IMG/VR virus record: IMGVR_UViG_3300024262_000013
DNA length: 64,000 nt
Origin: a virus
Taxonomy: Duplodnaviria > Caudoviricetes
Strand: one strand, 5' to 3'
This document shows, in pieces, positions 22,439 through 52,663 of this stretch. The notes below the pieces were generated by a model. The model saw only the letters and a list, made by a program, of their open reading frames with translations, was not told where the DNA came from and ran no database searches. Position 1 is the first letter of the stretch; every line of letters starts with the position of its first letter. Made by a program: the position numbers and the translations under genes.

Positions 22439-22687
22439 TTAATCTATAAGTTCGCTAATATTAATACCCTGCGAATCTAATAGGTTTTGTATTTCCCTAA
22501 AGGTCTCATCGATAACCTCAAACTCATCAAGTTCCTTTTGTTGTGACTCAAACCTATGTTCTAATCTCTTTTTAAGGTTATGTGTTAACTCAAATAAAAC
22601 AATTGCCATATCAGTTGATTTAACACATCTCATATGTGACATTCTGTCCTCTGAATCGTTTAAATCGAATTCTAATTTTGCTTTCAT
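22439..22687 (-). CDS. hypothetical phage protein (82 aa)
   Basis: MKAKLEFDLNDSED... ORF track. Confidence 0.7.
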   Translation of the reverse strand: MKAKLEFDLNDSEDRMSHMRCVKSTDMAIVLFELTHNLKKRLEHRFESQQKELDEFEVIDETFREIQNLLDSQGINISELID

Positions 22688-22821
22688 ATTGATATTGATA
22701 TTTCTCGGTTAATCCATCCTACAATTAATTCGTAGTTACCATTTAAAACTCTATCATAGGTTACCTTAATGTAAGGTAATATGTAGATTTGACTCATTAC
22801 TGTATATGTTGTTATTTTCAT
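22684..22821 (-). CDS. small hypothetical protein (45 aa)
   Basis: MKITTYTVMSQIYILPYIKV...; ATGA overlap with the next gene. Confidence 0.55.
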   Translation of the reverse strand: MKITTYTVMSQIYILPYIKVTYDRVLNGNYELIVGWINREISISI

Positions 22822-22842
22822 AATTTATTTTAATTTGTTTTG

Positions 22843-22914
22843 TAGCCCGTAGCAGAATCGAACTGCTATTTCCAGGATGAAAACCTGGCGTCCTAACCGG
22901 TAGACGAACGGGCC
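22843..22914 (-). tRNA. tRNA-Glu (UUC)
   Basis: GGCCCGT/ACGGGCT acceptor; CCAGG-TT-TTC-AT-CCTGG anticodon arm; GTTCGATT T-loop. Confidence 0.93.
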
Positions 22915-23026
22915 AAATAAAAGAGAGACTTCGGGTCTTTCGAGGTTACTGATATATGGGGGTTAACCTTTACCTTTATCCATATAATCTCAGCTTCACT
23001 AATCTCTCTAATTGTAATGGGTTTAG

Positions 23027-23242
23027 TTAAACCAAATTCCACTTTTTTGCTGATAACATAATCGCCTCCTCATTGGTTAAAGTTGGTTTGTCTCTTATAA
23101 TATCCATCGCGGAGTACATAACCTCACTCCTTAATCCTTTTTTTCTTGCCAAGTTTAAAACATCGACATAATAGTTCGGGTCAAATTTTGGTAGTGTACC
23201 ATCTTCTTCCATATCTGCAATTTTACTAAGTATATTACCCAT
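23027..23242 (-). CDS. hypothetical protein (71 aa)
   Basis: Start moved to MGNILSK, since TATATTTG lies at 23271-23264. Confidence 0.65.
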   Translation of the reverse strand: MGNILSKIADMEEDGTLPKFDPNYYVDVLNLARKKGLRSEVMYSAMDIIRDKPTLTNEEAIMLSAKKWNLV

Positions 23243-23321
23243 AAGTGTTTTTTTATTAGAGTACAAATATATGACAAATATTTGATTAAAACAAAATTAA
23301 TAATAAAATATTAAATGCATG

Positions 23322-23366
23322 AAAAAACCATCATTAAGTGTAAAAAAGTTACCTAATGATGGTTTT
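23322..23366 (-). terminator. hairpin terminator closing the tRNA operon
   Basis: 13-bp stem AAAACCATCATTA/TAATGATGGTTTT followed by a U-run on the minus strand. Confidence 0.65.
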
Positions 23367-23408
23367 ATAGTGCAAAGTTAAAAAGTGAGTTCTTTAACGG
23401 TTTATTTG

Positions 23409-23744
23409 TTATCCGTTAATTACGGAATTATTGGGTTTATCTAATTGCCTATAAATCTCTGAGACATGTTCACTCATATTATTTATAGTTTTGTCTACTC
23501 TACTATCAATATGACGGTAGACTTCGCTCATATCACTCTCACTTTGATTGTGTAGATTATCCACATAATCTGTGAGTTCTTTTCGAATCTTTTCTGATTC
23601 ATTATACTGATTTTCGATTACTCGATTCAGTTGGTTTATTTCCACTTTTAAGGACTTAGTTGACATATAATTCACAAACGTACCCACAACCATTACTAAT
23701 ACAATGACTGTACATACACCTAAAATAAATGATGTTATTTCCAT
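23409..23744 (-). CDS. single-TM coiled-coil protein (111 aa)
   Basis: N-terminal TM followed by a heptad-rich region. Confidence 0.7.
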   Translation of the reverse strand: MEITSFILGVCTVIVLVMVVGTFVNYMSTKSLKVEINQLNRVIENQYNESEKIRKELTDYVDNLHNQSESDMSEVYRHIDSRVDKTINNMSEHVSEIYRQLDKPNNSVING

Positions 23745-23760
23745 AATTTCTAATTTTAAT

Positions 23761-23786
23761 TTAATTTTTATGTCAAAGAACTCACT
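23761..23786 (-). promoter_or_regulatory. boxA-like element GTTCTTTGACAT within a 26-bp direct repeat (second copy 24169-24194)
   Basis: TTAATTTTTATGTCAAAGAACTCACT identical at both sites; related motifs at 24718-24729, 25045-25056 and 52667-52678. Confidence 0.6.
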
Positions 23787-24076
23787 TCACTTTTTAACTA
23801 TTAGCACCATCTATAATATAATATAAATGGTCAAGCTGTAAACACCTAAGGTTGGAGGGTGTGTTTTACCTCTTACCAGATTCTTAACTGAATTCCACCA
23901 TATTACAATACAGGTGGTACACTTGATAGATTTAATATGTACTCTCAGCTCTTTTGGTTTCTGCAACGTTACCATTGAATTATCCTGTCGGGTGCAGACA
24001 TAGGTACTGAGGTTATACAATTTATATTCTACCTTTATTTAGTGATATCTCACAAGGTCATAGGTTTAACCTTTAG

Positions 24077-24148
<72 letters not shown>

Positions 24149-24193
24149 ATTTATTTTTTCTTAATTCTTTAATTTTTATGTCAAAGAACTCAC

Positions 24194-24270
24194 TGGTGGA
24201 CCTTGATGGACTCGAACCATCGACCTACGCATTATGAGTGCGGTGCTCTAACCAACTGAGCTAAAAGTCC
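24194..24270 (-). tRNA. tRNA-Ile2 (CAU, lysidine type), CCA encoded
   Basis: GGACTTTTAGCTCAGTTGGTTAGAGCACCGCACTCATAATGCG; resembles bacterial Ile2 rather than Met. Confidence 0.8.
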
Positions 24271-24473
24271 GTTAACAGTCTATTTTATCCAACTACAACT
24301 GTCACGGATGTCCCAATAAAGTATAATCAATATTGGTTAGGAATAAAGTTTTTATTTTTTAGAAGAACTCAAACTCCGACTAGCATACTCACTAGTTGAT
24401 TAGTCACTATAAGGATTCTACCTTATTTCTCTTCATGTATGACACATTAGTCAATGTTACTTTGACACGTTAG

Positions 24474-24547
24474 TACACCCATCAGGATTCGAACCTGAGA
24501 CCGTCTCCTTAGAAGGGAGATGCTCTATCCAGCTGAGCTATGGGTGC
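24474..24547 (-). tRNA. tRNA-Arg (UCU)
   Basis: TCTCC-CT-TCT-AA-GGAGA; GCACCCA/TGGGTGT acceptor. Confidence 0.93.
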
Positions 24548-24613
24548 ATATTTGTAGGGTTCTTTTTTAAAGTTACATAGTTCCTACTAGTATTGTGTAA
24601 CTCCCTACATTAG

Positions 24614-24698
24614 TACCGCTGGGCGGACTCGAACCGCCACGGGATTTCATCCCAACAGATTTTAAGTCTGTCATGTCTACCAATTCCATCACAGCGGC
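24614..24698 (-). tRNA. tRNA-Leu (UAA)
   Basis: ACAGA-CT-TAA-AA-TCTGT; long variable arm GGGATGAAATCCC. Confidence 0.93.
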
Positions 24699-24747
24699 AT
24701 TTATATTAATCTATAATTTCAAATAACGTTTTTGTCTTTCGACTATG

Positions 24748-24755
24748 CAAATATA
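24748..24755 (-). promoter_or_regulatory. internal TATATTTG promoter upstream of tRNA-Leu
   Basis: TAnnTTTG match followed by a boxA variant GTTATTTGAA. Confidence 0.55.
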
Positions 24756-24802
24756 CTACACAAAAAATCAACTAACAACTATCTTAACTAATTTTTTATT
24801 TG

Positions 24803-24876
24803 TAGGAATGGGGGGATTTGAACCCTCGACCTTGACTATATAAGAGTCCTGCTCTAACCAACTGAGCTACATCCCC
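24803..24876 (-). tRNA. tRNA-Ile (UAU)
   Basis: GGACT-CT-TAT-AT-AGTCA anticodon arm (G27xA43 mismatch); GGGGATG/CATTCCT acceptor; A73; one T-stem mismatch. Confidence 0.8.
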
Positions 24877-24934
24877 ATATTGAAAACACCTATAAATTAT
24901 GTAGAGGAGCAAAACTCGATTTTTGTGTTAGTAG

Positions 24935-25007
24935 TGACCCCTCAGGGGTTCGAACCCTGGACCCTCACATTAAAAGTGTGATGCTCTACCAGCTGAGCTA
25001 AGAGGTC
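24935..25007 (-). tRNA. tRNA-Lys (UUU)
   Basis: TCACA-CT-TTT-AA-TGTGA; GACCTCT/AGGGGTC acceptor. Confidence 0.93.
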
Positions 25008-25072
25008 AGTATTTTACCGAATACTGTGTCGTTACTTAATCCTGATGTCAAAGAACGTTATTAATATAAAAC

Positions 25073-25098
25073 AAAAAACCCGAACATCTCTGTTCGGG
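25073..25098 (-). terminator. intrinsic terminator (candidate attenuator) upstream of tRNA-Lys
   Basis: Minus strand CCCGAACA-GAGA-TGTTCGGG-TTTTTTG: 8-bp stem, GNRA loop, U6. Confidence 0.8.
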
Positions 25099-25129
25099 CT
25101 TGTCTTTTTCATAGATTTAAGTCTATTTT

Positions 25130-25210
25130 TTATATCATGTTAACCGAACTTTTACATAATAATGAGAATGTAATTCTTAATATTATATTTTGTTTATATT
25201 GGTTATTCAT
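25130..25210 (-). CDS. putative leader peptide of the tRNA operon (26 aa)
   Basis: MNNQYKQNIILRITFSLLCKSSVNMI; codons 9-12 ATA ATA TTA AGA; lies between promoter and terminator. Confidence 0.55.
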   Translation of the reverse strand: MNNQYKQNIILRITFSLLCKSSVNMI

Positions 25211-25241
25211 TTTATATTTTATTAGTCTTTGTTGTGTGATA

Positions 25242-25272
25242 CAAATATAGGTAAATTTATTCTATTATCAAA
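25242..25272 (-). promoter_or_regulatory. consensus Bacteroidota promoter of the tRNA operon
   Basis: TTTG (25272-25269), 19 nt spacer, TATATTTG (25249-25242). Confidence 0.75.
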
Positions 25273-25284
25273 TAAACTTTTTGA

Positions 25285-25665
25285 TTATTTTGATATGTTC
25301 CTTTTCCTAAACCACGTTTTAGATAAAACAACAACTGTAGTAAAAAATATTAACCCTAATAAAAAGAAAACACCTACGTAATTAGTGGGTAGTGGTAATG
25401 AGTACGTTAATAGGGTCCAACCTAAAATATAACCAAACCATAATATAACCCAAATAATGTCGGGTATACGTTTGGTTTTCTTTTGTAATTTAATTATTTT
25501 TTCATCGTGAACTACACGAGATAATGCGTCTTGTAAATCTTTACCATACGCAGGTACTACCTCTGTTGAGCCATTTACATTTTGAATGGTAACTTCATAT
25601 TTTAACCATCCTTTAAACGTCTTACTTTCTTTACGAAGTTCTGCCTGAACTGCCTTTCTTTTCAT
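25285..25665 (-). CDS. hypothetical membrane protein (126 aa)
   Basis: PAYGKDLQDALSR motif; two C-terminal TM segments. Confidence 0.7.
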   Translation of the reverse strand: MKRKAVQAELRKESKTFKGWLKYEVTIQNVNGSTEVVPAYGKDLQDALSRVVHDEKIIKLQKKTKRIPDIIWVILWFGYILGWTLLTYSLPLPTNYVGVFFLLGLIFFTTVVVLSKTWFRKRNISK

Positions 25666-25798
25666 AATTATATTTTTTAGGGAAACCTATATCCAACCCA
25701 CCATAAATCAAGTCTAAAGAATTTATTTCCTCGATTTAATCCAAAACCAATACGTAACATACGGTTTTCTTTATTTAAATTAATTTTAGTTATTTTCA

Positions 25799-52229: not shown

Positions 52230-52276
52230 ATTATAAAAAAATTAAACCCCACCGATTGGAGGGGTTTAAATAGTTG

Positions 52277-52663
52277 TGGAGGCGGCGGGATTCGAACCCG
52301 CGTCTTGTTCAGTCCACCCATAAAGGACTACACGTTTAGGACAACATTAATTCACAATGTTCCGTAATATTTAGTTCAATTTTTACATCCTCCACTAACA
52401 ATAGATGTACGATTCAATTTAGGGTTTAATCGTTTTTCCACCACAACAACGGACTTCTGTTCATAGGTATATGTCCTGACCGACCCGATTCACTGTTTAC
52501 GTATTACGCTACAGCTACTTGTGCAGTTCTAAGTAAACCTAGAGCTGACATTTTGTTTAGTACGTTGCCGTCTAAAAAAGTTCCATCATAGATTTAAGTC
52601 ATAGATGAAGTTTGACTACGTGCCCCGTATAACTGACCCTGCCAATCAATTCCATTCGCCCCC
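52277..52663 (-). ncRNA. ssrA: tmRNA; tag GNVLNKMSALGLLRTAQVAVA (52569-52504)
   Basis: GGGGGCG/CGCCTCC acceptor with G3.U70; GGTTCGAATCCC T-arm; resume context TTAGAC-GGC-AAC; promoter at 52701-52694. Confidence 0.92.

Follow-up and report, generated by a model that had tools for sequence, protein, structure and literature searches.

A putative leader-peptide attenuator upstream of a tRNA array in a phage of probable Bacteroidota host

Background

In the enterobacterial leaders trpL, hisL, leuL, thrL and pheL, the codons that are sensed lie in a short open reading frame (ORF) near the promoter, and the leader RNA can adopt exclusive 1:2, 2:3 and 3:4 pairings. An intrinsic terminator lies ahead of the regulated genes, and the stop codon sits where a terminating ribosome covers region 2. 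A module that is predicted to share these features, and that would sense several amino acids as the multivalent ilvGMEDA leader does, precedes a tRNA array in IMG/VR virus record IMGVR_UViG_3300024262_000013 (Duplodnaviria; Caudoviricetes), of which a stretch of 64,000 nucleotides (nt), here called the window, was analysed. The module is probably a ribosome-mediated (leader-peptide) transcription attenuator that gates the phage tRNA array. This reading draws on the anatomy of the module, its conservation, the covariation of region 2 with region 3 across a class of similar cassettes, and predicted alternative folds.

There are also clear departures from the enterobacterial leaders. The phage targets are tRNAs rather than enzymes, and the signal would be an isoacceptor (the readers of AUA, UUA and AGA); the sensor codons occur once or twice and not in long runs, and the antiterminator is only 6 base pairs (bp). 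Furthermore, the module is encoded by a phage, whose probable Bacteroidota host does not use Shine-Dalgarno sequences, and it has a boxA downstream. The pheM leader of the Escherichia coli pheST operon is similar in that an attenuator controls a decoding component for the codons that it samples; however, the pheST target is a cellular aminoacyl-tRNA synthetase and a single amino acid is involved, whereas the phage target is a set of tRNA genes. T-box riboswitches likewise sense the status of tRNA through a choice between terminator and antiterminator in a 5' leader, but they bind uncharged tRNA directly, lack an ORF, and have a specifier loop and a T-box sequence. Finally, the motif GTTCTTTGACAT resembles the widespread bacterial boxA, which in rrn operons is bound by NusB-NusE. 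In the phage it precedes only stable-RNA genes, and in contrast to the rrn boxA it is found in tRNA, transfer-messenger RNA (tmRNA) and, in relatives, GOLLD units, downstream of an attenuator, where Nus binding is presumed.

To our knowledge, the regulation of phage tRNA genes is poorly understood. Our full-text searches turned up no report of attenuation at phage tRNA genes, nor of a boxA in phage tRNA clusters. The purpose of the genes themselves has been debated for decades, between codon compensation and escape from defences that target tRNA (PMC10264068).

The leader module and its alternative structures

All elements of the module are read on the minus strand (Table 1). The first-pass annotation of this DNA, made from the sequence, had listed a promoter, a leader ORF, a terminator, a boxA and the tRNA genes in this order; the order and all of its coordinates are correct, and every element is present. 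The leader ORF follows an A-rich stretch without a Shine-Dalgarno sequence, which matches the expectation for Bacteroidota. Its codons 9-12 are those read by tRNA-Ile(UAU), tRNA-Leu(UAA) and tRNA-Arg(UCU), which are encoded downstream. The stop codon begins 11 nt past the end of GUUCGG, the proposed 5' strand of the antiterminator, and the terminator stem starts 42 nt past the same hexamer. The terminator itself has 11 pairs (five of them G-C), a GAGA loop and a U6 tract, with an energy of -15 to -16 kcal/mol. A tRNA-Lys promoter downstream of the terminator had been named at first pass as a finding that would contradict attenuation; a search of the window detected no promoter motif of either kind (Bacteroidota-type or TTGATA-16-TATATT) between the terminator and tRNA-Lys. 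A second short ORF across the terminator (25112-25032) was ruled out, since its frame is broken by a 1-nt indel in relatives.

The leader is predicted to form the classical set of 1:2, 2:3 and 3:4 pairings, of which the 1:2 pairing was absent from the first-pass annotation. Until the terminator region has been transcribed, GUUCGGUUA is predicted to pair with UAACC and AAC, which lie in codons 2-7 of the ORF; this weak duplex has an energy of -5.4 kcal/mol, compared with -2.7 for shuffles (P ~0.05). In sister lineages, the partners are CGAA or AUCGAA, pairing with UUCG(GU). With the 3' arm of the terminator left out, GUUCGG is predicted to pair with CCGAAC with a probability of 0.76-0.98 in the window, 0.87-0.95 in the related contig L015 and 0.62-0.68 in the related contig L007. 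When the region upstream was shuffled 200 times, no shuffle matched the terminator 5' arm over 6 nt. The same behaviour is predicted for all ten of the units that were folded, namely 1:2 pairing before the terminator, 2:3 pairing without the 3' arm, and 3:4 pairing in the full RNA. Their summed 1:2 duplex energy is -99.8, against -71.7 (standard deviation 7.7) for shuffles, and 0 of 300 shuffles were as stable.

Table 1. Coordinates in the window of the leader module, the tRNA array and other features
Feature	Position	Strand	Details
Promoter	25272-25242	-	-33 TTTG (25272-25269), 19-nt spacer, -7 TATATTTG (25249-25242); alternatively TTGATA-16-TATATT
Leader ORF	25210-25130	-	26 codons and stop; peptide MNNQYKQNIILRITFSLLCKSSVNMI
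Region 1, candidate anti-antiterminator	25205-25192	-	UAACC (and AAC), complementary to GGUUA, GUU of region 2
Internal hairpin within ORF	25188-25154	-	AUAUAAUA..AGAAU-UAC-AUUCU..UAUUAUGU
Candidate sensor codons 9-12	25186-25175	-	ATA ATA TTA AGA (RNA: AUA AUA UUA AGA)
Region 2, antiterminator 5' strand	25149-25144	-	GUUCGG (DNA GTTCGG), complementary to CCGAAC
Small hairpin between region 2 and terminator	25126-25111	-	AUAGA-CUUAAA-UCUAU
Intrinsic terminator	25101-25076 (stem-loop), T tract to 25073	-	AAGCCCGAACA-GAGA-UGUUCGGGUUU and U tract (DNA 3' arm TGTTCGGGTTT)
Region 3	25097-25092	-	CCGAAC, in terminator 5' arm
boxA-like motif	25056-25045	-	GTTCTTTGACAT; 19 nt past terminator stem, 16 nt past T tract
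tRNA array	25007-24076	-	six tRNAs, second boxA inside
tRNA-Lys(UUU)	25007-24934	-	
tRNA-Ile(UAU)	24876-24802	-	
tRNA-Leu(UAA)	24698-24613	-	
tRNA-Arg(UCU)	24547-24473	-	
First CAU tRNA	24270-24194	-	
Second boxA	24189-24178	-	between the two CAU tRNAs
Second CAU tRNA	24148-24076	-	
Third boxA copy	23781-23770	-	
ORF, 111 residues	23744-23409		
ORF, 126 residues	25665-25285	-	predicted membrane protein
ORF, 40 residues	25799-25677		
tmRNA promoter and boxA variant	~52710-52667		
tmRNA gene	52274-52663	-	
tRNA-His	52228-52152		

Conservation in related phages

To find relatives, the proteins encoded nearby and a DNA pattern built around boxA and tRNA-Lys were used as queries. The module is present in viral contigs as well as in 14 contigs from marine metagenomes, and these fall into four lineages of uncultured marine phages with flanking proteins that are ~70% identical: the window together with G001; L004; the L007 group; and L015 with L026. 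G001, an IMG/VR contig of 162 kilobases, is the nearest record; it is 98% identical here and too close to be informative. Kept in all four lineages are the promoter, the position of the ATG, ATATTAAGAA, (A/T)AGTTCGGT, the terminator, the boxA and tRNA-Lys, and in 10 aligned sequences from the four lineages the promoter boxes and their 19-nt spacing are invariant. The leader, the terminator and the complementary hexamer, for which the first-pass annotation had proposed a check of conservation, are all retained. The window, G001 and L004 lineages have upstream a gene for a 126-residue predicted membrane protein without a family match. The L007 group lacks this gene and retains the module, which marks the module as independent of that gene rather than its tail end. 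There, a 40-residue ORF abuts the tRNA promoter instead.

The layout of the ORF differs between lineages. In the relatives it has 23 codons, and the stop lies directly before AGTTCGG. In the window lineage, a 13-nt deletion takes only the tip of the internal hairpin and shifts the 3' frame, so that the ORF extends across GTTCGG and its stop comes 11 nt beyond. Either way, the hexamer would be covered by a ribosome at the stop codon, which always falls within a ribosome footprint of GUUCGG. The peptide itself is poorly conserved, as expected of a leader peptide: L004 and L007 share 10 of 23 residues (43%), and the C-terminal half is frame-shifted in the window lineage. The internal hairpin is kept in all lineages. 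Its 5' strand, ATATTAAGAA, is invariant although about half of the positions in the partner strand differ between lineages, which suggests a constraint beyond pairing. In the L004 terminator, a C-to-U change keeps the pair as G-U.

A class of boxA-linked cassettes in phages

A survey was made with one fixed set of rules for viral and prokaryote units, in which a boxA is followed within 20-50 nt by TAGCTCAG. At least 120 stretches of viral contigs fit this pattern, as do at least 120 from prokaryote genomes. Among the matches listed for viral contigs, 114 were evaluable; a strong terminator lies just upstream of boxA in 31 of these, 29 have in addition an ORF of 12-60 codons that ends beside the terminator, and 19, representing 12 distinct sequences, also have a copy, defined as at least 6 nt upstream that are complementary to the terminator 5' arm. 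The corresponding numbers among the matches listed for bacterial and archaeal genomes (113 evaluable) are 7, 2 and 0, so that no full cassette was found there.

The terminator arm differs between cassettes and the copy changes with it. In unrelated cassettes, the copy/arm pairs are AGTTCAGGGT/ACCCTGAACT, TCGAAGC/GCTTCGA, GGGCTT/AAGCCC, TCCGAGGT(TC)/(GA)ACCTCGGA and AGTTCGGGT/ACCCGAACT, compared with GTTCGG/CCGAAC in the window, and the end of the copy is always 32-47 nt before the stem. In all 13 units of the class for which an ORF was called, it is 18-40 codons long, and the placement of the stop codon beside region 2 follows the same pattern across the class. Within this class, the window module is a weak, reduced member. 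It has the shortest leader (23-26 codons in its clade, compared with 28-40 in the other cassettes), an antiterminator of 6 rather than 7-10 nt, and a small array that, unlike those of the other cassettes, serves only A-ending codons. In the viral contigs L053/L145 and L054/L150, a second TAnnTTTG promoter lies between terminator and boxA (a gap of 51-67 nt), and these arrays may have both attenuated and constitutive inputs.

The leaders of the class share an N-terminal motif, x5-(K/T)-H-(N/I)-(I/V)-(I/S), as in MNKRNTHNIILR from the L007 group and MKNCSKHNIIRM from L070. It is carried by L070, L115, L056, L057, L062, L145, L137, L134, L113 and the clade of the window, whose arrays differ, and by its sequence the window leader is a member of this family. 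The motif could act through the nascent peptide, as an initiation context or as an RNA element.

A peptide motif common to the leaders of many phages is what a stand-alone gene would also show. In that case the locus would encode a small RNA of ~165 nt or a micropeptide of 23-26 residues, with the tRNAs merely located downstream, and a promoter, a structured RNA and an intrinsic terminator are indeed the usual anatomy of a small-RNA gene. We consider this very improbable. The peptide diverges between L004 and L007 and has changed frame in the window lineage, the cassette is always tied to a boxA and a tRNA array, and the array here has no promoter of its own. In addition, a search of Rfam over 22500-25700 (E up to 5) gave no family over the leader, and no T-box; a match to MicC reached 33 bits where the gathering score is 90, and was set aside as a chance hit that the terminator had produced.

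Leader codons and the tRNA arrays

Runs of at least four ATA, TTA or AGA codons, such as that at codons 9-12, are rare: they occur in none of 540 gene segments 25 codons long, and 2 of 416 other chance ORFs (20-30 codons) from the same DNA contain one. In the L004 leader, 17 of 21 codons are read by its own array, a proportion that none of the 416 chance ORFs reaches (binomial P = 1.6e-6); the L007 leader, with 10 of 21, is borderline, being equalled by 17 of the 416. Across 11 unrelated units, the match between a leader and its own array is 0.530, compared with 0.465 for permuted arrays (P = 0.0008). The Ile codons within the N-terminal motif also follow the array: leaders of arrays with tRNA-Ile(UAU) use ATA there, and those of arrays with tRNA-Ile(GAU) use ATT or ATC. 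The L004 array contains in addition tRNA-Ser(UGA), tRNA-Tyr(GUA) and tRNA-Thr(UGU), and its leader has three Tyr codons, three UCR codons and one ACA codon. This co-variation was taken as suggestive only, because the window leader has four such codons without those tRNAs.

These comparisons bear on what an attenuator of this kind would report. It could respond to general translation capacity, that is to ribosome availability or any slowdown of elongation, and not to the supply of the tRNAs encoded downstream. The evidence from architecture is the same for both possibilities. Moreover, leaders of small arrays hold many codons that their own array cannot read, and the N-terminal motif is conserved independently of array content. 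A general sensor is nevertheless quite unlikely, given that leaders fit their own arrays better than permuted ones, that the L004 leader matches so extensively, that the choice of Ile codon tracks the Ile anticodon of the array, and that ATATTAAGAA is invariant.

Attenuation or a leaky terminator

A number of observations weigh against attenuation, or against the sensing of specific codons, in the window. The GUUCGG:CCGAAC helix is worth about -4 kcal/mol, against -15 for the terminator, and its 6 bp place it at the low end of the class. Its predicted probability in L004 is only ~0.05, and in prediction it forms with or without a modelled stalled ribosome. As both hexamers are invariant, the clade itself offers no covariation. 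Without the terminator, the leader is not significantly structured (z = -1.55), and the internal hairpin is energetically weak. In the contig L020 (1264-1427, minus strand), the inner hairpin, GTTCGG, terminator, boxA and tRNA-Lys are nearly unchanged, but the sequence upstream of AATATAATATTAAG is unrelated and has neither promoter nor ATG; this low-coverage marine contig (1.7x) may be a chimera or a natural variant without a leader start. The codons AUA, UUA, AGA and AAA are the common ones in this phage (39% of Ile, 64% of Leu, 56% of Arg and 80% of Lys codons, respectively, at 31.6% G+C), so that any AT-rich ORF holds some of them. In the window leader, 9 of 24 codons are read by the array, and 34-49 of the 416 chance ORFs are as high (P 0.03-0.2). 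Several units with small arrays match their own arrays poorly, and since leaders without matching tRNAs also have N-I-I in the motif, conservation of N-I-I is partly a family trait. Lastly, we know of no work that establishes coupling of transcription and translation in the Bacteroidota.

Many of these points would be accounted for by a constitutive, leaky terminator or insulator, which ends transcription from upstream genes and from the module promoter while a fixed fraction of polymerase leaks through to the boxA and the tRNAs. The ORF would then be incidental and no codons would be sensed. Such a device would fit a terminator far stronger than its alternative, common leader codons that show no significant match in the window, a weakly structured leader, and the L020 contig, which lacks both ATG and promoter. 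It would not explain why a dedicated, invariant promoter lies directly upstream, why the ATG and ORF are kept in four lineages, or why the stop codon is always beside region 2. Nor would it explain two further points: the copy covaries with the terminator arm across unrelated cassettes at a set distance, and the cassette is found in 0 of the 113 bacterial and archaeal boxA-to-tRNA units among the matches listed. A leaky terminator is accordingly judged unlikely.

Taken together, the attenuator geometry claimed in the first-pass annotation is supported by conservation, by the placement of the stop codon, by covariation in the class at a set distance and by the predicted folds. The caveats it had raised, a 6-bp antiterminator and AT-rich codons that are common in the phage, hold as well. 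As to the leader codons, which it had taken as candidate sensors, the run at codons 9-12 is rare by chance, but the overall codon enrichment in the window leader is not significant.

Promoter, host and boxA

The form TTTG-N19-TATATTTG, a typical Bacteroidota -33/-7 promoter, describes the promoter of the module better than TTGATA-16-TATATT. It occurs 13 times in the window, 6-fold more than the 2.2 copies expected, and this number was reached in 0 of 100 shuffles. Being of Bacteroidota type and enriched in the window, this form points to a Bacteroidota host, which we regard as probable. When the region and its neighbours were compared by megablast, blastn and tblastn with 50,697 phage records, only tRNA pieces matched in cultured phages, and three leaders from the wider cassette class gave no match either. 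A cultured phage that could serve as a model was thus not found.

The motif GTTCTTTGACAT has three exact copies in the window, all on the minus strand and all within the tRNA region. The second and third sit in a common 26-nt repeat, GTGAGTTCTTTGACATAAAAATTAAA; the second precedes the second CAU tRNA and the third precedes the 111-residue ORF, a pairing that the distant relative L003/G004 also has. The tmRNA gene is directly preceded by a TATATTTG promoter and, after it, a variant of the motif, GTTCTTTGAAAA. This gene was missed by ARAGORN and found by Rfam (79 bits), and it is followed on its 3' side by a terminator-like hairpin and then by tRNA-His. Relatives of the phage have the motif ahead of tmRNA, of tRNA genes and of a GOLLD RNA. 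GOLLD RNAs (RF02032, 293-302 bits) are present in the relatives G002 and G003, at L027 (1501-2336, plus strand) and L040 (681-1512, minus strand), where the GOLLD units are preceded by a Bacteroidota-type promoter and the boxA motif; within the window, the search for GOLLD gave no match. The same pattern precedes tRNA genes in bacterial genomes of many phyla, and among the matches listed the same 12-mer lies 50-250 nt past the 3' end of 16S in 24 of 122 bacterial units.

A role for GTTCTTTGACAT as a promoter box was ruled out, because the motif is downstream of the tmRNA promoter, no -10/-7 box follows it, and the same 12-mer is found in bacterial 16S-23S spacers. Judged by its sequence and setting, the motif is an ordinary rrn-type boxA that is transcribed. 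In rrn operons, boxA recruits NusB-NusE and brings about antitermination (PMC2800207, PMC3177189). By analogy with these operons, the phage boxA (RNA GUUCUUUGACAU) likely recruits NusB-NusE.

Transcripts and proposed mechanism

In two marine RNA libraries, contigs of L007-group relatives span the terminator hairpin, the boxA and tRNA-Lys, and one reaches tRNA-Ile. These contigs fit read-through transcripts, as weak evidence given that carry-over of DNA is possible. Most of the matching contigs are tRNA pieces of other organisms, and stretches that no contig covers are not informative. Frequent contig ends at 25098-25101 were not accepted as RNA 5' ends, as they may be assembly branch points where strains diverge.

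From the features described above we infer translation of the leader, coupling of transcription and translation, stalling at specific codons, regulated read-through and Nus binding, and attenuation would then proceed as follows. Transcription would start at the Bacteroidota-type promoter, and a ribosome would translate the 26-codon leader. If codons 9-12, together with AAA, UUA and AUA elsewhere in the ORF, are read fast, the ribosome would reach the stop and cover GUUCGG; the terminator hairpin would then form and RNA polymerase would stop at the U tract. If they are read slowly, the ribosome would stall while covering region 1 together with the 5' strand of the inner hairpin, leaving GUUCGG free to pair with CCGAAC in the terminator 5' arm, and the polymerase would continue. 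It would next meet the boxA, where host Nus factors would probably make it resistant to termination, and would transcribe the tRNAs for Lys, Ile(UAU), Leu(UAA) and Arg(UCU) and the two CAU tRNAs. The result would be negative feedback, in which the array is on while A-ending codons are decoded poorly and off once phage tRNAs accumulate.

Such feedback on the supply of tRNAs that read A-ending codons is the simplest purpose, simpler than the sensing of a defence nuclease. Alternatively, the module could belong to a phage-specific class of putative counter-defence switches in Bacteroidota phages. The readers of AAA, AUA, UUA and AGA would be lost to a host anticodon nuclease (similar to PrrC, PARIS or RloC) or through codon starvation, and stalling in the leader would switch on nuclease-resistant replacement tRNAs. 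We put this forward tentatively and hold it to be doubtful.

Conclusions

The presence of an rrn-type boxA on phage tRNA, tmRNA and GOLLD units suggests that these phages have borrowed the ribosomal antitermination system of the host. If the proposed attenuation is correct, tRNA genes would join the targets of the classical mechanism as a new class, and the mechanism would also reach the Bacteroidota, in which coupling has been little studied. The module would be a compact sensor of codon-specific translation, through which the phage would gauge the decoding speed of its own preferred codons and adjust its supply of tRNA.

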